Below, piece after piece: positions 22,353 to 56,341 of a stretch of DNA of 64,000 bases. Origin of the DNA: Minisyncoccota bacterium (GTDB lineage: Bacteria; Patescibacteriota; Minisyncoccia; Phycocordibacterales; CAIZLB01). The notes beneath the pieces are model-generated. The model did not search any database and had not been told where the DNA came from. It saw only the letters and a list, made by a program, of their open reading frames with translations. The DNA lies in assembly GCA_021734945.1 (NCBI GenBank), contig JAIPIA010000002.1, forward strand, positions 194,829-258,828, given 5' to 3'. Position numbers and translations under genes: made by a program. The first letter of the stretch is position 1. Every line of letters starts with the position of its first letter.

Positions 22353-25300
22353 CTAAATCTGAGTTGATTGTTGAGGCTGTTGATTTGGTAGAGGTTTCGC
22401 CAATGGCGCAGCAGAAAACGCCGTAGAAGCTGCTGGTTTAGGCGCCATAGGTGGCATACCAAAAACAGATGCTGTTCCAGATGGACTTTGAGATGCAGGC
22501 GCCACAGCAGGTTCCTTCTTATATTTTTCCATAATCAAATCCTCAACGAGCGAACGATCCTGACCATACTTAAGGTATGAAAGTTCTTTTAGGTTTTCAA
22601 CCATATCTGGATTACCCTTACTTGGCCATGTAAATTCTACGTTGAATGGGCGGACGGGCTTACCTCCTGAAAGCATCTTTACATAACAATTCATATTATC
22701 AATATTCATAATATCGTTTGAGGTAAACACGGGCTCAAACTGCTTCTCTAGGAACTCCGCGTCTTCTGCACCCACTCGGAACACACTCATATTTCCTACG
22801 TTTCCAAAGACTGCATCTTTAATTTTTTCATCTAGCTGAGCAATAAACTGGTGAGCCATTGTGAGGGAAAGTTTGTATTTTCGTGCCTCAGAAAGAATAG
22901 TCGAAATAGATGGAGTTGTGATGTTTTGGAATTCATCTATATATAGATAAAATGGCGCCATATCTTTTCCAAATGAGTCCACTCTCGATAGAGCTGCCAT
23001 CAAAATTTTACCTACAAGGATAAGCCCGATAAGTGATGAGTTAATATCACCCAATCGCCCCTTTGCAAGATTTACCAACAAAATCTTTTTTGAATCCATT
23101 ATTTCTCGAAAATTGAAACTAGATTTTTCCTGCGCGATGATAGGTCGCATAATATCGTTTGCCAAGAACACATCGAACTTACTTGTGATATATGGCACCA
23201 TGTTCTGGAGTGAACCCTCCCCTCCTGCTTTCTCAGCAATATCTTTCCAGAATTGAACAACGATAGGATTTTTACATCGAGCAATCTTCATATCTCGGAA
23301 ACTCTTCACGGCCATTACTCGAGAGACATCAAGAAGCGTACATCCACTATCAGGATCCTCGATCACAAGCATTGTGGCATTTCGGAAATATTGTTCGAAC
23401 ATCGGACCCATAGATTCTGGCACACCACCGTAGAGTTTTTGGAAAATACTAAAGAGTTCGTTCACCACGAATGTTTTTTGTTCTGGATAGTCTCGATTAT
23501 ATTCGAGCATGTTCAAAGACATAGGCCGCTCAACATGACTTGGATCAAAGTAAATAACATCCTCGTATCTCTCTTTTGGAATATGAGCAAGAATATCCTG
23601 TACATCTGATCCGTGTGGGTCAATAAAACACACACCATCACCGTTGTTGATGTCCTGCATAATCATATTTCGAAGCATTGTAGATTTACCAGTTCCTGTC
23701 TGACCAATAACATAGAAGTGTCGAAGTCTATCTTCTGGCGTCACATATATAGGTGTATCTATATTTCGGTGTTTGTTTGTTCCGAGAAAAAGATTTTGTT
23801 TTGTGAGACCATCATGTCCTGTTATCATAGCGCCTGGTAAACCTAATGGAGCTGGAGCACTACCAGCTTTTGATTGTTTGAGTTGATGAGCGCCCGCGAC
23901 AGCCTCTGTCGGAAAGTGCATGATGGTTGTGAGTTCACGTGTTGAAATAGCTAAAGAATGAGACTTATCAAACAAACGATATGAATAGTTGTGAGTAAGC
24001 TCAGCAAGTGCAAAATCTTTTACTCGTTCAAATTTGAGTGCGTTTCCGAGAGAATTTTCAAATTGACCAAACGCAGATTCAATACCTGAAATAATATCTT
24101 CTGCTCGCGGACGACTTTCTGCAGATACTAGAACACGAATATTACTTTCAATAACAGGCGTCTGAATTTTTGTTGTAATTTGTTCTACAGCAATTGAATC
24201 AATGACTTTCGGCTCTTCTTTCTTCTCTTTATCACCTTTTGTGATTTCTTTATAAGTCTCTTTCGTCAATTCTTTGAATCCTTTTGTAAAATTACCCCAG
24301 AGAGTATGTCGTATATCTGTAGCCTTTTTGACAGCATCTCCTTTCTGAATAGCATCCAAAGCCTCTTTGTACTGTTTATTATAATAATCCCCCGCAGGAT
24401 TAAGCATAATCTGAATAGCTGCACCTTCACCATCTTTTTGAATTTTTGAAAGTGCGTTTAAAATAACGTTAAGTGGATCATAATCAAACTGCTCATATGT
24501 TTTTATTGGGAATATTTCGCGCCGAACTTGCTTTGCCGTTGAGCCGACTGAAATGCCTTCTTCATTAAAAATATTGTAATTATCTTTCTTCTCAGCGAGT
24601 TTTGCATTTGGAAAAATAGAGAGAAATTGTTTCTCAAAAATATCTCGCTTTTGGTCAGGTACTGCAACATAAAAAACAAACTCTTCCCCGCCGTTAGATA
24701 CAGCGAGCTCAATAGAAAACTGATTTTCAACCAAATCCGTACCATATGAAGCCTTTCCTCCTGTAGAAACAGAAAGCATACCAGCATAAAACTGTTCCAT
24801 CGATGAGATAAGTTCTTTGAGGTTTTTTCGCTTTTCATCAGCATCACCTTTTGGTTCAGGTAACGCTACTTCATACAAAGTTTGTTTGAGAGCTTTTGCA
24901 ACAGGTAATGTTTCTTTGAGTCCAGTGTACGGATATCCTTTTTTCAAATATTCAACAAGGAATCTATGAAAATCCCCATCTATATGAGGACTATTCATTC
25001 CTCGTGCAACTTGAATAGCATTAAGTACACCCTTTTCTTGCATAACCTCCATAAGACCCTCCATTCTTTTGTCATGCATTTCAGGCGCCAAGTCCAAGAT
25101 GATTTCCCATTGTTCCTGCGCAGGCATTTTGTAATGTTCGTGAAGTACCCTATCAGCATTCTGAACACTATAGTCTGCAATTTCTGAATCTATAATATTT
25201 GCCCGTTCCTGTTGACGAGCTTCAGACTCTGGATGTGATGTAAGATTTTGCTCTCGACTTTGTACTACTGTACGCAAATAGTCGAGCTCTTCTTGGAGTG

Positions 25301-25406
25301 ATGCAAATTGTTTACCTTCATATACGCCTGAGGGTTTTGCTTCTGTAGAGACACCAGATTGTGACTGTGCCTGCGATTGTACTTCTCTGAATTTTTCTTG
25401 TTCCAT
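22353..25406 (-). CDS. Large VirD4/TraG/TraD-like (FtsK-HerA superfamily) P-loop ATPase with ~550-aa non-ATPase N-terminal region
   Basis: Walker A GQTGTGKST and DPHG (residues ~565-600). C-terminal YLYIDEFQNI...LTMAHQFIAQL...FRVG block resembles the TrwB/TraG-D_C (TraM-recognition) region. No TM helices seen. Confidence 0.5.
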   Translation of the reverse strand: MEQEKFREVQSQAQSQSGVSTEAKPSGVYEGKQFASLQEELDYLRTVVQSREQNLTSHPESEARQQERANIIDSEIADYSVQNADRVLHEHYKMPAQEQWEIILDLAPEMHDKRMEGLMEVMQEKGVLNAIQVARGMNSPHIDGDFHRFLVEYLKKGYPYTGLKETLPVAKALKQTLYEVALPEPKGDADEKRKNLKELISSMEQFYAGMLSVSTGGKASYGTDLVENQFSIELAVSNGGEEFVFYVAVPDQKRDIFEKQFLSIFPNAKLAEKKDNYNIFNEEGISVGSTAKQVRREIFPIKTYEQFDYDPLNVILNALSKIQKDGEGAAIQIMLNPAGDYYNKQYKEALDAIQKGDAVKKATDIRHTLWGNFTKGFKELTKETYKEITKGDKEKKEEPKVIDSIAVEQITTKIQTPVIESNIRVLVSAESRPRAEDIISGIESAFGQFENSLGNALKFERVKDFALAELTHNYSYRLFDKSHSLAISTRELTTIMHFPTEAVAGAHQLKQSKAGSAPAPLGLPGAMITGHDGLTKQNLFLGTNKHRNIDTPIYVTPEDRLRHFYVIGQTGTGKSTMLRNMIMQDINNGDGVCFIDPHGSDVQDILAHIPKERYEDVIYFDPSHVERPMSLNMLEYNRDYPEQKTFVVNELFSIFQKLYGGVPESMGPMFEQYFRNATMLVIEDPDSGCTLLDVSRVMAVKSFRDMKIARCKNPIVVQFWKDIAEKAGGEGSLQNMVPYITSKFDVFLANDIMRPIIAQEKSSFNFREIMDSKKILLVNLAKGRLGDINSSLIGLILVGKILMAALSRVDSFGKDMAPFYLYIDEFQNITTPSISTILSEARKYKLSLTMAHQFIAQLDEKIKDAVFGNVGNMSVFRVGAEDAEFLEKQFEPVFTSNDIMNIDNMNCYVKMLSGGKPVRPFNVEFTWPSKGNPDMVENLKELSYLKYGQDRSLVEDLIMEKYKKEPAVAPASQSPSGTASVFGMPPMAPKPAASTAFSAAPLAKPLPNQQPQQSTQI

Positions 25407-27038: not shown

Positions 27039-27647
27039 TTACCAATTCAACCCTTTTGTAATAGCTTGCGTCACTTGATCGATAGTCTGCTCACCATTTA
27101 CGTGCACGAAGTTATATCCTGGAGCTTTTTCGAAATATTTGAGAGCTGGCAATACGTCAGTATCAAACCAATTTAGGCGTCGTTCTATTTGCTCCAAACT
27201 TGAGTCGTCTTTTCGTCCTTCGATTTTACTACGAGTAAACAAATGCTTCTTTGACCATTCTCGACTTACATCAATATGTATAACGATCGGTTTGGCGCGA
27301 TTGTAAAAAGAGATAGCAGAATCAAATACGAGTGCTTCTTCGTATGAACGTGGCATACCATCCACAATGAGATGCTCCTCTCCTGTCATTTCCTCTATAA
27401 GTACATGTGCCCAATTCCACACAGCGAGAAAATCTGGTTGTCGTCCGCCTGTATCAGTAATATATGAGGCAAGCTTGTTTGTATATCCAGGAAGTTTAAT
27501 AAATTCCCGAAATCGTGGACCTGTTTCGAGGTACATGATTTTTCTTTTTTCGTTATCCATCTTTTCAATATATTCACGCAGAATTTTTGCTTGAGTTCCC
27601 TTTCCACATCCTGAACGTCCTATGAAAATAAAAGTCTTTGGTTGCAT
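27039..27647 (-). CDS. adk: Adenylate kinase
   Basis: P-loop FIFIGRSGCGKGTQA. LID-less short form. Confidence 0.75.
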   Translation of the reverse strand: MQPKTFIFIGRSGCGKGTQAKILREYIEKMDNEKRKIMYLETGPRFREFIKLPGYTNKLASYITDTGGRQPDFLAVWNWAHVLIEEMTGEEHLIVDGMPRSYEEALVFDSAISFYNRAKPIVIHIDVSREWSKKHLFTRSKIEGRKDDSSLEQIERRLNWFDTDVLPALKYFEKAPGYNFVHVNGEQTIDQVTQAITKGLNW

Positions 27648-28666: not shown

Positions 28667-29485
28667 TTATTCTAGTGCTCCCAAAAACACTTTTTTAAAT
28701 ATTCCGCTATCTACTATATCTTGTCCTTTCCCTTCTGCCACAACCTTTCCCTTATCAAGTACATAAGCTCGATCTACAATTGGTAAAAGAGATTTTAGAT
28801 TATGTTCAACGACGACTATTGCCATACCTTTTTTCTGATTGATTTCGTGAATTTTTTCAAAAACTTCTTGTACTACTTTTGGAGCAAGCCCGAGTGATGG
28901 TTCGTCGAGAAGAAGTATTCGAGGGTCTGTTATGAGACCTCGTGCAATAGCAACCATTTGTTGTTGTCCACCAGAAAGCTCTCGTGACTTTTGCTTGAGT
29001 TTAGAACGCAATGCAGGAAAAAGACCAAGAACCTCTTCGACTCGTTCTTTTAGAACACTTTTATCTTTGAGTGTGATACCACCAATTTCCAAATTTTCTT
29101 TTACAGTCAAATTTCCAAATACACGCTTCCCTTGTGGAACAAGGGTAATACCCATAGGCACCATATGATGAGGCTGACGTAATTCCTCACTGATTTTATT
29201 TTGTCGCCAATAAACACCGCTATCAGTATTACCGTTATTTTTGCGATTAAGATTTTCTAAACTTTTTTCTAAATTTTCATGATGTTCACTCGAGACAATA
29301 GGAGCAAGACCAAAAATTGCTTTAAGGATAGTAGACTTACCAGCGCCATTTGGACCCATAAGAGCAACAACCTCACCCTCTTTGAAATGAACATTCACGG
29401 AATCTAGAGCCTTTACTCCGCCATAGGTAACACTCACATTTTTGAGCTCGATGAGAGTTTCACTTTCGTTAGAACTTTTAGTCAT
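28667..29485 (-). CDS. livF: Branched-chain amino acid ABC transporter ATP-binding protein LivF-like, with a ~30-aa insertion after Walker A
   Basis: GPNGAGKST, LSGGQQQMVAIARGL, LLLDEPSLGLAP. Extra segment SSEHHENLEKSLENLNRKNNGNTDSG. Confidence 0.65.
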   Translation of the reverse strand: MTKSSNESETLIELKNVSVTYGGVKALDSVNVHFKEGEVVALMGPNGAGKSTILKAIFGLAPIVSSEHHENLEKSLENLNRKNNGNTDSGVYWRQNKISEELRQPHHMVPMGITLVPQGKRVFGNLTVKENLEIGGITLKDKSVLKERVEEVLGLFPALRSKLKQKSRELSGGQQQMVAIARGLITDPRILLLDEPSLGLAPKVVQEVFEKIHEINQKKGMAIVVVEHNLKSLLPIVDRAYVLDKGKVVAEGKGQDIVDSGIFKKVFLGALE

Positions 29486-29582
29486 ATAGATTTAATACCC
29501 TAAGTATACAATAAAAGATACTCTATCCCATGGCACCTGTACAAAACATCACCTCAGAGTATACTTCGATTCTAGATACCCT

Positions 29583-30251
29583 ATGGTATTCCCTTGTCAG
29601 AAAATCAGCTCACATCCACCCTTCAGTCACCCCCCCCACATCAACTCAGTACCTAATAGTCCTATGACAACAATCACACTCACCCCCGAACAGGTTTCAT
29701 TAAACCTGTTCTATTTCGGCATTACGTTCCTCCTTCTCGGCTCAATCGCCCGCAGGTGGGCTGAACTCAAGAAGGTCAGATTCGGCGTCATGCAAGTACC
29801 TCCCATTGACGGAAGACACGGCAAGCTTGAAAAAGCTCTCATGTATCCACTCAAAATAATTGGCTATGTCCTCGCAGTAAGCGCGATTTGGGTCCATGTG
29901 TCGTACACCCCTATTACGTACGGACTTCTCATCTCTTACGTCCTAGTCATCTGTGTCTACGTTGGAATACCATTCTGCTTTAAACCGGACAAAGACTTTT
30001 CGGTCAAAGACAATTGGCAAATTCAAAGAGAAAGATTGATTGCTGCAAGAGGAATGTACGCAATCACAATTCTTTTTGTTCCAACTTCGATTTTTGGGAA
30101 TTGGTGTTTCGGAAGCTTTGTACTCCTCTCTGTTTTTTTGTATGAGGTATTCGTTTTCTCAAACAAAGAACAAAAAAACTGGGAGGAATACGCCGATTTC
30201 GACATCGATCACTCAGAAGAGATTCCTCGGCCAACACCATCGACAGAGTGA
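29583..30251 (+). CDS. Polytopic membrane protein on GC-rich islet 2; N-terminal region contains a poly-C (8-9 nt) tract
   Basis: ORF-track frame encodes ...SHPPH... across the C-run. An alternative start MTTITLTPEQ lies just downstream. Four or five TM helices. GC well above the flanks. Confidence 0.4.
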   Translation: MVFPCQKISSHPPFSHPPHINSVPNSPMTTITLTPEQVSLNLFYFGITFLLLGSIARRWAELKKVRFGVMQVPPIDGRHGKLEKALMYPLKIIGYVLAVSAIWVHVSYTPITYGLLISYVLVICVYVGIPFCFKPDKDFSVKDNWQIQRERLIAARGMYAITILFVPTSIFGNWCFGSFVLLSVFLYEVFVFSNKEQKNWEEYADFDIDHSEEIPRPTPSTE

Positions 30252-30265
30252 CCCCCGTCTGTCTG

Positions 30266-30302
30266 CTTCGCGCCGCCCTACTCCAAGGGCGGCGCTTTTT
30301 TT
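30266..30302 (+). terminator. GC-rich rho-independent terminator of islet 2
   Basis: GCGCCGCCCtactccaaGGGCGGCGC followed by tttttttc. Confidence 0.6.
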
Positions 30303-30319: not shown

Positions 30320-30637
30320 TTAAATAACAACAGCAGTACCACTCACATTCACCATCAACATCCCTCCATGTGAGCCAACAGTTTCATAATCGAGATCAAC
30401 ACCAACGACAGCGTTTGCACCAAGAGCTGCAGCATTTTGCATAATTTCTGCAAGCGCTGCTTCACGAGCTTTTTTCAATTCACCTTCATACATTCCAGAA
30501 CGTCCACCAAAGAAGTCAGTGAATCCTGCAAATATGTCTTTTACAACATTTGCACCCATAATAACCTCTCCTGTTACAAGACCTTTATATTCTTTGATTG
30601 GCTTACCCTCAATAGTATTTGTTGTTGTGATTATCAT
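30320..30637 (-). CDS. YbjQ/UPF0145 (DUF74) family protein
   Basis: [48 protein letters not shown]...[13 protein letters not shown]. The ORF-track 5' extension was discarded. Confidence 0.6.
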
Positions 30638-36790: not shown

Positions 36791-36955
36791 GAGATTTTAT
36801 ACTCTTATATTATGCCGTAAATATGTATTTTGTGAAAGTTTGACAGACAATCAGTTTTAGATAAAATATAGATACTTTTGGGATTTCCCACGACCCCGCT
36901 CGAGAGAGCGGGGATAATTTTTTCTAAAGGCCTAGTAGGATTTGTAATTTTCTCT

Positions 36956-50000: not shown

Positions 50001-50153
50001 AATTGTTGTAAATATTTATAATATCTACAATCGTAGCATCAACTTTACTTATGTCAACTATATTCGTCAATACATATATAAAATTAGCCATATTTATAGG
50101 CGTATTATTGTACATTAATTAAAATTGTGGATGTTATTTGACACAAATATACA

Positions 50154-50957
50154 TTGCAATATATACTTAAAATAATGAAATCAAATAATTCTCAAATAAA
50201 AATAAATCTGCAATCTTTCGGCTTTAGTGAGAAGGAGGTGGATGTATATATTGCGTTATTAGAGTTAGGAAAAGGGACTGTTTCTGAAATTTCACGAAAA
50301 GCTGGAATAAACAGAACAACTGGATATGACATTCTTGGATCACTAGCTACAAAAGGTGTTGTGAATGTATCAGGAAAAGAACCTAAACAAGAATATGCAG
50401 CAGAGTCCCCAGCTTCAATAACACAGTATTTAAAAAGAATAGCTGCTGAGACTGCAGAGCATATTAAAAAATCTGAGGAAATTATCCCCGAACTAGAAGT
50501 TCTTCATGCACTCAAAAATAGACCTAAAATTAGATTTTATGAAGGTAAAGAAGGCTTGCAACATGTATACGAAGATACACTTACATCTTCTGAACCTATT
50601 CGTGCATACGCGACAATCGACGACATGTATAAAGCACTTCCCAACTACTTTCCTGAATACTATAAAAGAAGAGCTAAGAAAGGTATTACAATAAGAGGTA
50701 TTGTTCCAAAGACAGCTGCTGGAATAGATAGAAAAAAATATGACAAGGAAGAGAAGAGAGAAATTGCTTTTGTACCTGCAGATAAATATTATTTTTCACC
50801 TGAAATAAACATATATGACAACAAAGTAATGATTGCTTCTTGGCGAGAAAATCTAGGCATTATCATCGAAAGTGCTGAGATTGCTGATGTTATGAAGAAA
50901 ATGTATGAATTGGCTTGGACTGAGGCTAAGAGGTTGGATAAGGAAGGTGATAAATAA
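50154..50957 (+). CDS. TrmB-family wHTH transcriptional regulator (paralog 7)
   Basis: LQSFGFSEKEVDVYIALLELGKGTVSEISRKAGINRTTGYDILGSLATKGVVN. Confidence 0.6.
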   Translation: MQYILKIMKSNNSQIKINLQSFGFSEKEVDVYIALLELGKGTVSEISRKAGINRTTGYDILGSLATKGVVNVSGKEPKQEYAAESPASITQYLKRIAAETAEHIKKSEEIIPELEVLHALKNRPKIRFYEGKEGLQHVYEDTLTSSEPIRAYATIDDMYKALPNYFPEYYKRRAKKGITIRGIVPKTAAGIDRKKYDKEEKREIAFVPADKYYFSPEINIYDNKVMIASWRENLGIIIESAEIADVMKKMYELAWTEAKRLDKEGDK

Positions 50958-51080
50958 AAAAATTTAAAATTCATACAAAATAAAACCAGCGACCCCTCTG
51001 TAGGAATCGCCGGCGATTTGCGTCTATATGTACGCACTGAATATTTTAAACACCTCAAATACAAGCTACCACAGCATGTA

Positions 51081-51989
51081 TTAAAGCATCGCACTGAACT
51101 TCGTGCCAGTGAGAGCAAGACCCCAGAAACCTTTTGTTCTGACCAATTTCTGAGTATCTTCCCCATCGAAGCTGTTTGGGAGATGTGTCAGAAACATCTT
51201 ACTTTTTGCATCGACAGGCAGAGTGACAAGTGAATCAAATGGCGCATGTACTGGATCATTAGGAAACGGTGATGCATCATGAATCATCACTTTACAACGT
51301 GGAGCATACGACTTGATCAGACCCGCGTCGAAGCGAGTGTCACCTGAAATCCAGATCAAATCATTAATCAGAACTCCAGTGCTCCAAGCTGATTCTTGCC
51401 ATGATGAAGCGACAGCCGGTGTGTGCATGGTTCGGAAAGCCTCGATCTTGAAACTTCCTTTTTTGAACTGATAGATATCTCTGTCTGCGAAGGAACTGTC
51501 CTCCGTAGGCAAAAGAATGTCGTACCAGCGGTTTGAGGGCAAAGTTTTGAGGTCGTCTCCACCTTCATCCTTCGAGGACCTCAACGAATCGTGTGAGGAC
51601 AATCCGCCTGATAGACTATTGTTCCACAGATCTTGTGCCCAAGTGCGAGGAGCCCACAATGTGGCTTTGGCACCAGGGACATTACCGCGGAAATAGCGGT
51701 TATCGATGAGCATCCGATCGAGACCACCTATGTGATCTCCATGAGCATGAGTGATAAAGAAGTTTGAAATCGAAGCAGGATTGATTCCAAACCGAGTGAA
51801 CGACGCAGGAACGTTGTAGCCGCAGTCGATAAGTAAAGATTCCTTACCGAGAACAGCAATGAAACTCGTGTGCGTGTTTGCCTGCGCGGCCCCGTGACCA
51901 ATAGCATAGACTTCGAGCTGACTGCCGTCGTTTTGAAGCGAGACAGCACTAAACTGCGTAACTTTAACATGGGCTGGTTTGATTTTCAT
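51081..51989 (-). CDS. MBL-fold metallo-hydrolase
   Basis: FITHAHGDHIGGL (HxHxDH) and additional His/Asp ligands. Confidence 0.55.
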   Translation of the reverse strand: MKIKPAHVKVTQFSAVSLQNDGSQLEVYAIGHGAAQANTHTSFIAVLGKESLLIDCGYNVPASFTRFGINPASISNFFITHAHGDHIGGLDRMLIDNRYFRGNVPGAKATLWAPRTWAQDLWNNSLSGGLSSHDSLRSSKDEGGDDLKTLPSNRWYDILLPTEDSSFADRDIYQFKKGSFKIEAFRTMHTPAVASSWQESAWSTGVLINDLIWISGDTRFDAGLIKSYAPRCKVMIHDASPFPNDPVHAPFDSLVTLPVDAKSKMFLTHLPNSFDGEDTQKLVRTKGFWGLALTGTKFSAML

Positions 51990-52278
51990 AGAACTATGAG
52001 CTTTCGCTCGGGTTGGTTGGTTTGGATTTTCTGAATAGAATGGAGTCTAGTTGCACCAGACTTTTCTAAATTGTGTTGTCTGAGGTTCTTCTAGACGTCA
52101 CCCTGACGTCACCTCTATATCTGTATTTCTAACTATAATTCTAGTACCTGCGTAGTTTGGCGCAATAATTTATGTCGAACTTTTCGTCTAAAATTATTGA
52201 TTTAACAATAGTGAGGCGTATAATAAAGTAAGTACTGAAAGGTGGCGAATTCAATAAAAAATTAAATACAATAAAAAT

Positions 52279-53028
52279 ATGACTGAACTTATTGAACTAA
52301 TTAAAAACAGTGGGTTAACAGAGAAAGAATCAAAAATATATCTTGCGGCTTTAGAACTGGGAGAAGGAACAGTACAAGATATATCTAAAAAATCTGGAGT
52401 TGTTCGTACTTCCCTATACTATATTATCGAACGACTTGTGAGAGAAGGCTTTCTTATTGAAACAAAAAGAAACCGTAAAAACTTTTACATGGCTTGCCCA
52501 CCAATGGATGTAGCAACAAAACTTCGTCAGAGAATTCGTGAATTTGAGACGCACATAAATATTCTCGAAGCGCGACGTGGTGCTCTATATAAGAGACCAC
52601 GTATGTATTTCTTGCATGGTCCGAGTGGTTTCAAAGAAGCTTGGAATATTATTTTTAAATCTGATCCACGCGAATATTCTATAATCACGGAGGGACTCAA
52701 CTTTCTCGATTATGTGAAGGCAAAGTATATTGTGACTGAAATAATTTCTCAGAAGAAAAAACTCGGAGTACGCAGTAAACAAATGATCATCGATTCACCT
52801 TATGCACGTGAACATATTTTACCTAAAGATAAATTGGAAAATAGAAAAAGCCGACTACTCCCCCGAGGTATGAGACTTGGTTTTACAGAAGTAATATGTC
52901 CGAAGCTTGTTGCTTTTATTTCACCAAAATACAATGATAGTATTTTTATAATCGAAGATGCAGTGTTCGCTGAAACACGTAAGGTACTGTTTGATCAGTT
53001 GTGGTATACGTTGCCGGAGGTGAAGTAA
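52279..53028 (+). CDS. TrmB-family wHTH transcriptional regulator (paralog 8)
   Basis: IKNSGLTEKESKIYLAALELGEGTVQDISKKSGVVRTSLYYIIERLVREGFLIE. Confidence 0.6.
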   Translation: MTELIELIKNSGLTEKESKIYLAALELGEGTVQDISKKSGVVRTSLYYIIERLVREGFLIETKRNRKNFYMACPPMDVATKLRQRIREFETHINILEARRGALYKRPRMYFLHGPSGFKEAWNIIFKSDPREYSIITEGLNFLDYVKAKYIVTEIISQKKKLGVRSKQMIIDSPYAREHILPKDKLENRKSRLLPRGMRLGFTEVICPKLVAFISPKYNDSIFIIEDAVFAETRKVLFDQLWYTLPEVK

Positions 53029-55069: not shown

Positions 55070-56341
55070 CTAGTACTCTCTCATAGACAACTGAGCGTCT
55101 ACTTTCTTTACGATATCGAGAACTACTGATACTACGATAAGAAGTCCTGTACCACCAACAGTAAGGTATGAAATACCTGTAATAGCCTTGAGAACCGGTG
55201 GAAGCACCGCCACAAGTGCTAGGAAGAGCGCACCAACGAGAGTGATACGAGTTACCACCTTACCAAGATACGCCTCTGTAGACTCACCAGGACGCACGCC
55301 AGGGATAAATGCTCCACCCTTCTGAAGATTCTCAGATATAGACTTTGGGTCGAACGTAACTGCTGTATAGAAGAATGTGAAGAAGAATACAAGTACAAAG
55401 TAAGCGCCAGCGTAGAACCATGGGTTAGCCATCAAATCAGTAACAATAAGAGCTAACTTATCTATTGCAGGATAATGCAAATATGTAAGGAAGTTCAATA
55501 CCATCTGTGGAAGCAAGAGAAGTGAGAGAGCAAAGATGATAGGGATAACTCCAGCTTGGTTAAGTCGAAGTGGAAGGTATGTAGAAGTACCACCATGAGT
55601 CTGACCACCTCGTATCTGCTTTGCATATGTTACTGGAATAGGTCGTTCTGCTTCTGTAATATATACAACCAAAAGCACCATAAGGAGCGCTAGTGCACCA
55701 AGTGCGATATATGTAAACAAATCTTCAATCTGGAATGCATAGAAAATCTGAGATGCAACTTGTGGGACAACAGCAACGATACCAGCAAAGATAATCATTG
55801 AGAGACCGTTACCGATACCGAACTCTGTCATAACCTCACCAAGCCACATGAGGAATACTGAACCAGCTACGATAACTAGTACGTTTGTAAGAAGAGAAAA
55901 TGAATCAAGTGAGGCTACGATACCTTGTCGCTGTAAGAGTACGATGAATCCGAAAGCCTGTGCAAATGCAAGAGGAACAGAAAGGAGTCGTGAATACTGT
56001 GAAAACTTTTTTCGCCCAATAGCACCCTCTTCCTGGTACATAGACTTAAGCTTTGGAGACATCATAGTCAAAAGCTGCATAATAATAGAAGCAGTAATGT
56101 ATGGGCCTACACCGAGCATTACGATAGAGAGAGTAGAAAGTCCTCCTCCTGAGAAAATATTTAAAAGACCGAAAAATTGGTTACTATCTAAAAACTGTGA
56201 AAGAGCAGTTTGGTCTACTCCAGGGATTGGGATAACTGAAAGAACACGGAATGCTGCAAGAATACCCAAAACAAAAAGAACCTGTTTTCGTAAGGCTGAA
56301 TCCTGAAAAATGTGCTTTATTTTCTGTATGAAATTTGACAT
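55070..56341 (-). CDS. secY: Preprotein translocase subunit SecY
   Basis: 10-TM protein. LSVIPIPGVD, GVGPYITASIIMQLL motifs. Confidence 0.85.
   Translation of the reverse strand: MSNFIQKIKHIFQDSALRKQVLFVLGILAAFRVLSVIPIPGVDQTALSQFLDSNQFFGLLNIFSGGGLSTLSIVMLGVGPYITASIIMQLLTMMSPKLKSMYQEEGAIGRKKFSQYSRLLSVPLAFAQAFGFIVLLQRQGIVASLDSFSLLTNVLVIVAGSVFLMWLGEVMTEFGIGNGLSMIIFAGIVAVVPQVASQIFYAFQIEDLFTYIALGALALLMVLLVVYITEAERPIPVTYAKQIRGGQTHGGTSTYLPLRLNQAGVIPIIFALSLLLLPQMVLNFLTYLHYPAIDKLALIVTDLMANPWFYAGAYFVLVFFFTFFYTAVTFDPKSISENLQKGGAFIPGVRPGESTEAYLGKVVTRITLVGALFLALVAVLPPVLKAITGISYLTVGGTGLLIVVSVVLDIVKKVDAQLSMREY

Follow-up and report, generated by a model that had tools for sequence, protein, structure and literature searches.

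The gene and its flanking elements

The DNA analysed is a stretch of 64,000 nucleotides from one contig of a Minisyncoccota bacterium (hereafter the window). It contains a 195-aa ORF that is accompanied by elements of its own: a promoter-like element, a leader with a hairpin and a C8 homopolymer, a second hairpin inside the ORF and an intrinsic terminator (Table 1). The neighbours in the window are a livF-like gene, ybjQ and an IMPase-like gene. The first of these, a livF-like ABC ATPase gene (28667–29485, minus strand), is the divergent neighbour, and the segment thus lies upstream of livF, as the initial annotation had placed it.

Table 1. Features of the target gene and its flanks, with positions in the window.
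Feature	Position	Strand	Basis or remark
Promoter-like element TGTACA-16 nt-TATACT	29538..29565	+	consensus scan
Putative 5' UTR, ~92 nt	29572..29663	+	A/C-rich, G-poor, unstructured
5'-proximal hairpin GAUACC-CUAU-GGUAUU	29575..29590	+	sole element in leader centroid fold
Upstream in-frame ATG giving a 222-aa reading	29583..29585	+	non-conserved, probably unused
C8 homopolymer	29630-29637	+	exact count
ORF, 195 aa (stop codon within coordinates)	29664..30251	+	M1 invariant in 13-member alignment
Perfect 10-bp hairpin GAACAGGUUU-CAUU-AAACCUGUUC	29688..29711	+	inverted repeat I4
Intrinsic terminator GCGCCGCCCT-loop-AGGGCGGCGC + T7	30270..30302	+	terminator scan

The gene had been taken for a membrane-protein gene, and the AF2 model of its product, which has five long helices (pLDDT 77.8, pTM 0.74), agrees with this. 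The product, predicted to be a five-helix membrane protein, belongs to a family that is very small and uncharacterised. Homologs number six among 5.8 billion clusters and nine among 1.84 billion representatives in an exhaustive profile search; only seven remote members were added, and the family alignment comprises 13 members. The protein has no match in Pfam, PHROGs or PADLOC or in a PDB sequence search, a fold search (Foldseek) of the AF2 model against PDB and BFVD gave no match, and NCBIfam returned noise only (PgpA, 17.9 bits versus a cutoff of 226). Protein-pattern scans of genome contigs and metagenome contigs yielded no further family members, a scan of viral contigs yielded no relatives and a promoter-pattern scan of metagenome contigs yielded nothing. 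A 194-aa gene beside adk (L092) was considered and is not homologous to the target protein.

The promoter-like element is part of a block, CTGTACAAAA-N10-GAGTATACTTC, shared without change by five orthologous loci (the window, L001, L004, L005 and L006; hereafter the main clade), and around it both the flanks and the synonymous sites have diverged. The distant members L007 and L094 have TTGCAG-17-TATACT in its place. The element may act as a promoter or an operator, and transcription would start at about 29572, a position placed from the conserved -10/-35-like block. As a regulon motif, TGTACA-N16-TATACT was rejected: the window holds no other exact copy, and matches with up to two mismatches occur at chance level.

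The 5'-proximal hairpin begins ~3 nt past the putative transcription start. Its counterpart in the orthologs is GAUACC-AGAC/AAAC-GGUGUC, and the pairing is kept through G-C/G-U and U-G/U-A changes; the palindrome could equally act in DNA as an operator. At its 3' end the leader has a conserved AATAGTCCT immediately before the ATG; like the hairpin, it is conserved across the main clade. The fold of the leader is no better than that of shuffled sequences (z = +1.48; equal or better folds in 188 of 200 shuffles). Against Rfam covariance models the leader stayed without a match at a cutoff as loose as E = 10, with terminator-like noise downstream only, and nothing in the window reached the gathering score.

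The hairpin inside the ORF covers codons 9–16, that is, +25 to +48 relative to the A of the start codon. It is found at the same intragenic place in all seven orthologs, with a different sequence in L094, and comes out as more stable in comparison with synonymous recodings (fractions of 0.002, 0.063, 0.069, 0.090, 0.046, 0.146 and 0.001). Judged from these comparisons, it appears to be under selection. The terminator starts 18 nt past the stop codon and consists of a 10-bp stem with nine G-C pairs and a 6-nt loop (30270–30295), followed by T7 (30296–30302); a GC-rich stem-loop with a U-run just 3' of a stop codon is what defines an intrinsic terminator. Its G-C pair count is the highest among terminator-like sites in positions 1–60000, which bears out the earlier remark that it is unusually GC-rich. 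The core CGCCGCC...GGCGGCG is kept downstream of the main-clade orthologs, and L007 has a different GC-rich hairpin instead, CACCACCGTCA...TGACGGTGG.

Start codon and position of the poly-C tract

The initial annotation described an intragenic run of 8–9 C, read as SHPPH in the ORF-track frame, in which a slip of one base would switch the frame, and it listed a downstream start (MTTITLTPEQ) 25 nt after the run as an alternative. The run has exactly eight C, and S-H-P-P-H is indeed its translation in the frame opened by ATG 29583. However, the MTTITLTPEQ start (ATG 29664–29666) is the real one, because protein conservation begins at its Met in all 13 family members. The tract therefore lies 26 nt 5' of the start codon, and 64 nt 3' of the -10 box.

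Four observations place the tract in the 5' UTR: (i) M1 is shared throughout the family; (ii) an in-frame upstream start codon is missing in three of the six orthologous loci (L001, L005 and L007); (iii) the spacing between the -10 box and the ATG in the main-clade loci is 98, 88, 86, 90 and 89 nt, and the differences in leader length among loci are not all multiples of three; and (iv) ATG 29583 is unique to this genome, and the window has no other in-frame start upstream. This ATG also lies within the loop and 3' arm of the conserved hairpin, 10–13 nt from the putative transcription start. Of the family, 11 members are called from the conserved Met and lack the 27-aa extension that it would add; the other two, P0002 and P0003, have calls that begin further upstream at GTG codons, with extensions that agree with the one here in neither frame nor sequence. 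Both existing gene calls appear to have the wrong start: the NCBI call of 153 aa loses the first helix, which is conserved, and the Logan call of 222 aa adds 27 non-conserved residues.

The length of the tract determines how the frame from ATG 29583 ends. With C8 it is fused to the ORF, with C7 or C10 it ends in an ATGA overlap with the main start, and with C6 or C9 it ends 8 nt upstream. By computation, the 195-aa ORF stays intact with C6, C7, C9 or C10, so that the proposed switching by a slip of one base does not hold for the conserved protein. The C8 tract is untranslated, and one C more or less alters only the length of the leader and leaves the protein frame unchanged. Since it lies in the untranslated leader, outside the protein, it is not a frameshift switch. 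That the upstream ATG stands in frame with the ORF in this genome would be a coincidence, a point that counts against the explanation we prefer below.

C runs in the window have lengths of 1–5, followed only by the one C8 and one C10 (13190–13199), and no other C/G run in the 64 kb exceeds 5. A first-order Markov model predicts 0.21 C/G runs of at least 8 per window, and the expected count corresponding to C10 is 0.009; C8 appears in just 2.3% of shuffles of the leader itself. At the position of C8 the orthologs have ACAAACC or ACAACC (ACACAACC-like) with longest C runs of 2–4; the tract is absent from every orthologous locus and specific to this genome. A second assembly (Logan, SRR12088351) is identical, including C8, and the NCBI MAG and Logan are the only two assemblies. 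When tract-length variants were sought in other assemblies, the 195-aa product was not on record, the 222-aa product was present in one Logan contig, identical to the window, and the product of the other tract-bearing gene (islet 1, below) was not on record.

Translation initiation, composition and inheritance

An SD-like motif at -20 to -4 is present in three of 64 genes, compared with 2.6 expected by chance; this genome uses no Shine-Dalgarno motifs. G makes up 11.6% of positions -30 to -1 across genes, and G-poor upstream regions are therefore the rule here. The anti-SD motif has been reported in only 48% of Parcubacteria (PMC9297842). The leader of the target gene probably serves SD-independent initiation. 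Its last 70 nt are 40% C; in the last 70 nt of the orthologous leaders, A+C is 0.68–0.73 and G is 0.11–0.14, and L001 and L094 are among the leaders that are more A-rich than C-rich.

The segment 29560–30302 has a GC content of 45.8% versus 37.6% for the window, and only 0.9% of 743-bp windows are equally GC-rich, so it was rightly singled out as compositionally distinct (top 1% of same-size segments). Codon usage of the target gene is likewise atypical, with GC3 of 0.49 versus 0.29 (z = +4.0) and C3 of 0.33 versus 0.13 (z = +5.1); GC1 and GC2 are within the normal range. The elevation is restricted to third codon positions and non-coding sequence, and most of it is sense-strand C. GC3 of the main-clade orthologs is 0.42–0.49 versus 0.24–0.35 in their neighbours; L094, the most distant member, has 0.37, near background. 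Third-base identity at conserved residues of the main-clade orthologs is only 0.45–0.52, that is, synonymous sites are near saturation. GC3 and C3 are still raised despite this, which indicates that the unusual composition is being maintained rather than marking a recent transfer.

The gene, with its own promoter and terminator, was found in six other sequence-distinct loci. It is adjoined by ybjQ in L001, L004 and L005, the three downstream flanks with a Pfam call; the downstream ORFs of L006 and L007 are truncated and without a Pfam call. The upstream neighbour differs between loci.

The window contains two further units of similar build. In islet 1, to which a parallel had been drawn, C10 stands 6 nt before ATG 13206; the protein encoded from there has 86 aa, including a signal peptide and a TM segment, and the gene has a terminator behind it at 13490–13517. 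The parallel is thus real in its architecture. A third such unit is a TrmB-linked MBL-fold hydrolase gene (51081–51989, minus strand), the second GC3-rich unit, with 47% identity within Pacebacteria and at most 36% in other matches (a few of them named Spirochaetes). The proposal that the islets form one family has to be given up: the two islet proteins are unrelated, and islet 1 is without any homologs. The short motifs CAGAAAWTC and AGYYCT-ATG are exact and common to the target leader and the MBL gene leader, but an nhmmer profile of the target leaders detects the MBL leaders only at E = 7.7, so the likeness is limited to short motifs and does not amount to whole-leader homology. The explanation that we prefer below does not account for the maintenance of GC3 and C3 in the target gene, the MBL gene and islet 1, and the near-background GC3 of L094 also counts against it. 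A further point against it is that C8 and C10, clear outliers in run length, occur in the leaders of the two units richest in C; this hints at a common cause or function beyond 'neutral expansion'.

We consider it probable, though well short of certain, that the segment is a self-contained single-gene transcription unit, inherited vertically in a small Pacebacteria (CPR/Parcubacteria) clade, and that C8 is a species-specific, untranslated homopolymer that arose in the C/A-rich part of the leader where the orthologs have ACACAACC-type sequence. The unit would consist, in order, of the conserved promoter block, the 5'-proximal hairpin, the ~90-nt A/C-rich leader, ATG 29664, the 195-aa five-helix membrane protein and the strong GC-rich intrinsic terminator. 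Within it, (i) the leader may keep the start region single-stranded for SD-independent initiation; (ii) the 5' hairpin may stabilise the mRNA or work as an operator; and (iii) the conserved hairpin at +25 to +48 may help to delimit or position initiation. The raised GC would be a feature maintained in the main-clade orthologs and not the fading trace of a recent transfer.

Alternatively, the unit could be a horizontally acquired cassette, gained by the clade ancestor or passed repeatedly between clade members; GC-biased gene conversion would then keep GC3 high. The initial annotation called the segment acquired; the atypical composition, which is the sole argument for that claim, stands (GC3 and C3 as above, together with the GC/C-rich non-coding parts). 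A cassette would also fit a unit with its own promoter, leader and terminator, the tiny family, the finding of no relative in 185,579 species-representative genomes, the varying upstream neighbour and the fall in identity of the MBL gene outside Pacebacteria. In addition, the gene is absent beside livF in the three nearest representatives found, which are more distant genomes. However, the searches, which extended to viral contigs and JGI metagenomes, turned up no homolog in a donor, and the mobility signatures of a genomic islet are lacking: no integrase or transposase gene was found near the unit, there is no tRNA in the window and no tandem repeats were found. The only repeat flanking the unit, a 14-nt direct repeat (29427/30336), was discarded as a candidate target-site duplication, since each copy falls within a conserved coding sequence (livF and ybjQ). 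Raised GC3 at near-saturated synonymous sites is not what recent transfer predicts, and the G-poor, SD-less leader matches the host's own style of initiation. The annotation had itself named core homologs of similar GC in the lineage as evidence against acquisition, and the GC3 of the main-clade orthologs goes part of the way towards this. We therefore regard acquisition as unlikely: the 'GC islet' is not demonstrably foreign DNA, and nothing here shows recent acquisition or phase variation.

Alternatives for the tract and comparison with known systems

The tract itself could be a hypermutable 5' UTR repeat, parallel to C10, that tunes expression in a phase- or rheostat-variable manner through the length of the leader or the fate of ribosomes coming from ATG 29583. 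Contingency loci are known from poly-G/C tracts in surface genes of Neisseria, Haemophilus, Campylobacter and Helicobacter and from poly-C in Bordetella fim promoters, and they typically carry G/C tracts at least 8 bases long. C8 resembles these in being an outlier G/C homopolymer of at least 8, long enough to slip (~7–8 or more for G/C), beside an envelope/membrane-protein gene. The window holds a second tract, the two are its sole C/G runs longer than 5 against the low expected counts given above, both lie in sense-strand leaders of membrane or secreted proteins, and the length of C8 decides the fate of the 29583 frame. The placement of C8 is nevertheless not one in which its length would be expected to alter expression, because it lies outside the conserved ORF, well past the -10 box, in an unstructured SD-less leader and upstream of an ORF that is intact from C6 to C10. 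It is thus neither in the conserved coding sequence nor in the -35/-10 spacer, and the leader offers no structure or SD motif whose spacing could be upset. No orthologous locus has the tract or the upstream ATG, both assemblies have C8, the 195-aa ORF is translatable at every tract length and length polymorphism is undocumented for C8. No paper on homopolymeric phase variation in CPR was found in the literature searched. Hypermutability of the tract is, on this balance, clearly unlikely.

It is just as improbable that a few self-contained genes of this SD-less Pacebacteria clade share a new expression module in which poly-C sets the expression level. Its genes would be that of the 5-TM protein, the MBL-fold hydrolase gene and perhaps the orphan at 13206. 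It would combine a 5'-proximal hairpin and a long, unstructured C/A-rich leader bearing CAGAAAWTC and AGYYCU-AUG with a coding sequence enriched in sense-strand C at its synonymous positions and with a strong GC-rich terminator; C8 and C10 would be hypermutable or Rho- or protein-binding elements. If true, the module would be a previously undescribed, CPR-specific system of post-transcriptional control.

The C-rich leader with its poly-C core could also be a Rho loading (rut-like) site, which would cause attenuation unless ribosomes initiate promptly. Rut sites are C-rich, G-poor and unstructured over ~70–80 nt, no stronger activator of Rho is known than poly(C), and the Salmonella mgtA and corA leaders are examples of Rho-dependent leader attenuators. 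The 70-nt stretch 29618–29687 is of this kind: it is unstructured and, with 32 C and 4 G, has the largest excess of C over G in the window on either strand. The leader is also about four times longer than that of livF (~20 nt). With the known attenuators it shares a long 5' leader, a strong bias of C over G, the lack of structure and a poly-C core, but this likeness is compositional only. Moreover, several orthologous leaders (such as L001 and L094) are more A-rich than C-rich, G-poor upstream regions are general in this genome, and SD-independent initiation alone explains them. The Pfam scan of ORFs in the window, which covers the smaller part of the genome, showed no rho gene, and no paper with both 'termination factor Rho' and 'Candidate Phyla Radiation' was found in the literature searched. 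We hold Rho loading to be very unlikely.

Scarcely credible is the literal reading, in which translation from ATG 29583 makes the poly-C coding and a slip of one C turns an envelope protein of 222 aa ON or OFF: with C8 this longer ORF is indeed open and in frame, and the gene caller of the Logan assemblies called it so, but the ortholog comparison largely refutes the reading, with the extension unconserved, no in-frame upstream start in three loci, leader differences that are not all multiples of three, the ATG buried in the conserved hairpin about 10 nt from the putative 5' end, and the downstream ATG and the whole conserved protein intact even in the 'OFF' frames.

The main value of the analysis is thus a correction, namely that the poly-C tract is no intragenic frameshift switch and that the 'GC islet' is not demonstrably foreign. 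The analysis also offers several leads for CPR biology: an SD-less genome, a few long C/A-rich leaders, a maintained C-rich synonymous composition and a conserved hairpin ~25 nt inside the ORF. These leads come from comparisons of a handful of sequences; should a genuine mechanism of initiation or regulation lie behind them, they would be relevant to start-codon choice in Parcubacteria without anti-SD.

Two further known systems resemble parts of the unit. Its terminator is like canonical Rho-independent terminators in having a GC-rich 10-bp stem, a 6-nt loop and T7 and in being conserved in the main-clade orthologs, and differs only in being the most GC-rich example of an AT-rich window. The start region is like systems of SD-independent initiation (Bacteroidota, cyanobacteria and the Parcubacteria subgroup without anti-SD; PMC9297842) in that the genome has no SD signal, the G-poor leader is no more stably folded than shuffled sequence, and the start codon is single-stranded between two hairpins. 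By contrast, typical upstream regions of this genome are A/T-rich (C 16%), whereas this leader has ~90 nt, is C-rich in its last 70 nt and carries CAGAAAWTC and AGYYCT-ATG in common with one unrelated gene.

Start codon of the target gene

Our results suggest that the target gene, annotated as NCBI protein MCF7865473.1 (locus tag K9M11_03135) in a 'Candidatus Pacebacteria bacterium' MAG, is probably an ordinary conserved monocistronic gene for an uncharacterised membrane protein with wrong public starts, and that its C8 run is a lineage-specific homopolymer in a C/A-rich untranslated leader. The public start calls disagree. Two were rejected: (i) the NCBI 153-aa start would remove the first and most conserved helix, PE(Q/L)VSLNLFYFG..FLLLGSIARR; and (ii) the 222-aa start in Logan, an independent assembly of run SRR12088351, adds 27 residues without conservation, and its ATG occurs in this genome only, within a conserved hairpin (loop and 3' arm).

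Homologs are few (six among 5.8 billion protein clusters; nine among 1.84 billion representatives in an exhaustive profile search), and 13 of 13 aligned family members begin at the Met equivalent to ATG 29664, with M1 invariant. The orthologous loci L001, L005 and L007 contain no upstream in-frame start codon. The conserved -10 box lies 98 nt from the ATG in the window and 88, 86, 90 and 89 nt from it in L001, L004, L005 and L006, respectively; since not every difference is a multiple of three, this stretch is not evolving as a coding sequence. Conservation supports the 195-aa protein from ATG 29664. Because homologs set the start at 29664, the C8 tract falls in the 5' UTR, 26 nt upstream of the start codon. 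The initial annotation had treated the tract as intragenic, which the family-wide start contradicts; the alternative start that it proposed downstream of the tract proves to be the conserved one.

Anatomy, composition and ancestry of the unit

The gene was found in seven sequence-distinct loci: the window and L001, L004, L005 and L006, which form the main clade, together with L007 and L094. Among flanks that were readable and annotated, the window and L001 share the order divergent livF-like ATPase gene, target gene and convergent ybjQ; L004 has an additional gene before ybjQ, and L005 keeps ybjQ with a different upstream neighbour. Pairing of the 5' hairpin is preserved via G-C/G-U and U-G/U-A changes, and a terminator core (CGCCGCC...GGCGGCG) is conserved 3' of the ORF in main-clade orthologs.

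Features of the target gene and of the two other units in the window
Feature	Coordinates	Strand	Remarks
Promoter block, putative	holds TGTACA-16-TATACT at 29538-29565	+	CTGTACAAAA-N10-GAGTATACTTC, identical in five main-clade loci
5' hairpin	29575-29590	+	GAUACC-NNNN-GGURUY
CAGAAAWTC motif	between 5' hairpin and C/A-rich stretch	+	conserved element
C/A-rich leader stretch	after CAGAAAWTC	+	sequence variable
Start ATG, Logan	29583	+	222 aa; gene call
AATAGTCCT-ATG	at start codon	+	invariant across main clade
Start ATG, conserved	29664	+	195 aa; supported by conservation
Perfect 10-bp hairpin	29688-29711	+	codons 9-16 of target ORF
Start Met, NCBI	near 29790	+	153 aa; NCBI call
Intrinsic terminator	30270-30295 + T7	+	10 pairs, 9 G-C
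Islet 1	13107-13523	+	promoter-like element, leader, ORF, terminator
Islet 1 terminator	13490-13517	+	GC-rich
MBL-fold hydrolase gene	51081-51989 (unit 50985-52140)	-	third unit with the target's signature
MBL gene terminator	51014-50985	-	GC-rich

The AF2 model of the protein (pLDDT 77.8, pTM 0.74) contains five long helices (residues 8-39, 54-81, 86-105, 114-138 and 149-176). Searches gave no match in Pfam, PHROGs or PADLOC, noise only in NCBIfam, no PDB sequence match and no Foldseek match in PDB or BFVD. The family to which this membrane protein belongs is very small and lineage-restricted.

The segment 29560-30302 is compositionally distinct, as initially described: its GC content is 45.8% (top 0.9% among 743-bp windows), and that of the window is 37.6%. 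Its terminator, also said to be unusually GC-rich, indeed has the highest G-C pair count among terminator-like sites in 1-60000. Within the ORF, GC1 and GC2 are average and G3 is unchanged, while GC3 is 0.49 versus a mean of 0.29 in 65 window ORFs (z = +4.0) and C3 is 0.33 versus 0.13 (z = +5.1). Main-clade orthologs and L007 are also raised relative to their neighbours (GC3 0.42-0.49 versus 0.24-0.35; C3 0.20-0.29 versus 0.09-0.17), and the most distant member, L094, has a GC3 of 0.37. Third-base identity between the window and its orthologs at conserved residues is near saturation (0.45-0.52); a bias that is raised in orthologs despite this is unlike a recent import, and it is maintained.

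The suggestion that the segment is an acquired islet stands only for its atypical GC3 and C3: the bias is kept in orthologs, the unit has no tRNA, mobility gene or genuine flanking repeat, and GTDB species representatives, JGI metagenomes and viral contigs yielded no donor homolog. A 14-nt direct repeat (29427-29440 / 30336-30349, 13/14 identical) was considered as a target-site duplication and judged a chance match, because both copies are part of neighbouring coding sequences, those of the livF-like gene and ybjQ. Among species representatives, L008-L010 are the nearest livF relatives, and all three lack the target gene beside livF; the gene is therefore restricted to its clade and not core to Pacebacteria in general. 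An ancient or repeatedly exchanged cassette is unlikely on these data; it would be compatible with an ordinary conserved gene.

The C8 tract and units of similar style

Direct counting gives exactly eight bases at 29630-29637, in agreement with the C-run first placed at about 29630-29638. C runs in the window measure 1-5, followed by a gap and then C8 and C10 (13190-13199); under a first-order Markov model, 0.21 C/G runs of at least 8 and 0.009 of at least 10 are expected, and shuffling the bases of the leader itself yields a C8 in just 2.3% of cases. A slippage rheostat in the 5' UTR could draw on such a rare run but is improbable: the Logan assembly matches the window identically across 3669 bp, C8 included, and orthologs carry ATACAAACC or ACACAACC(C/T) at this position, with longest C runs of 2-4 over the final 70 leader nucleotides. 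Phase variation may occur but is not favoured by these comparisons.

The two poly-C outliers coincide with the two most C-rich leaders, and the C-over-G excess of 29618-29687 (C32, G4) is the greatest on either strand of the 64-kb window. Shuffled sequence folds at least as well as the leader RNA (z = +1.48), whose centroid fold contains the 5' hairpin only; no Rfam family matches the leader. A Rho-loading leader would suit this C-rich RNA but is quite improbable. The frameshift switch originally proposed, in which a +/-1 slip changes the protein's frame, is very hard to credit, as the 195-aa ORF is computed to be unbroken at every length from C6 to C10, and a hypothetical reading from 29583 would be fused to it at C8; at C7 and C10 it would end in an ATGA that overlaps the main start, and at C6 and C9 it would end 8 nt upstream of that start.

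Islet 1 had been joined with the target in a two-islet family. The parallel architecture (C-tract, small membrane protein and GC-rich terminator) holds; the proteins are unrelated. Islet 1 has a promoter-like TTGACA-17-TAATAT, a G-poor leader with its C10 6 nt upstream of ATG 13206, and a GC3 of 0.67 (z = +7.5). Its 86-aa product carries a signal peptide and, near the C-terminus, a TM segment; a search of 5.8 billion clusters found no homolog, and no other assembly has the protein on record.

The MBL-fold hydrolase gene has a GC3 of 0.47, a C3 of 0.26 and a long C/A-rich leader that holds the only other exact window copies of TCAGAAAATC and ATAGTYCT-ATG. Its divergent neighbour is a TrmB regulator gene (52279-53028, +), and between the two lies a perfect palindrome, GACGTCA-GGG-TGACGTC (52094-52110). 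Pacebacteria relatives keep this pair, and their MBL orthologs retain the C/A-rich leader, AGTTCT-ATG, a CGCCGG terminator and raised GC3; next-best matches beyond Pacebacteria reach at most 36% identity, a few being named Spirochaetes. A target-leader profile detects MBL leaders only at E = 7.7, and the likeness is limited to short motifs. The target, islet 1 and the MBL gene share a common style of expression signals and composition, and no protein family.

In the relatives L088, L089 and L092, the TrmB/MBL pair directly follows secY, and L092 has adk-map just two genes past MBL. In the window, secY (55070-56341) and adk (27039-27647) are separated by about 27 kb. Besides the target gene, this interval (~27000-56400) contains six LivK-like binding-protein paralogs, a PemK-DHH fusion and at least two TrmB regulators; it resembles a zone of lineage-specific expansion where the spc ribosomal operon ends. 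A site at 36840-36913 (+), intergenic between two genes on the minus strand, carries the window's best promoter match (TTGACA-16-TAAAAT, 11/12; tied with 50138-50167) and, about 27 nt past it, a GC-rich hairpin, CCCCGCTC-GAGA-GAGCGGGG. The site has no Rfam match and could be a very short transcript or sRNA. Elsewhere, a 1017-aa ORF (22353-25406, -) has weak VirD4/TraG-type coupling protein and HerA-like ATPase domain matches.

Translation context

GGAG, GAGG or AGGA occurs at -20 to -4 in 3 of 64 genes versus 2.6 expected by chance, and window genes have no Shine-Dalgarno (SD) signal. Their upstream regions are 40% A, 33% T, 16% C and 12% G; the target leader is G-poor like its host, yet unusually long and C-rich (40% C). 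The hairpin in codons 9-16 occupies the same position in each of the seven orthologs, although its sequence in L094 is unrelated, and in each it exceeds synonymous recodings in stability (fractions 0.002, 0.063, 0.069, 0.090, 0.046, 0.146 and 0.001). It may be an initiation-related mRNA structure. Together with the 5' hairpin, it would bound a single-stranded window presenting the start codon, an arrangement expected for SD-independent initiation. An anti-SD motif was detected in only 48% of Parcubacteria (PMC9297842), and the SD-less window is consistent with the Parcubacteria subgroup reported without this motif (PMC9297842).
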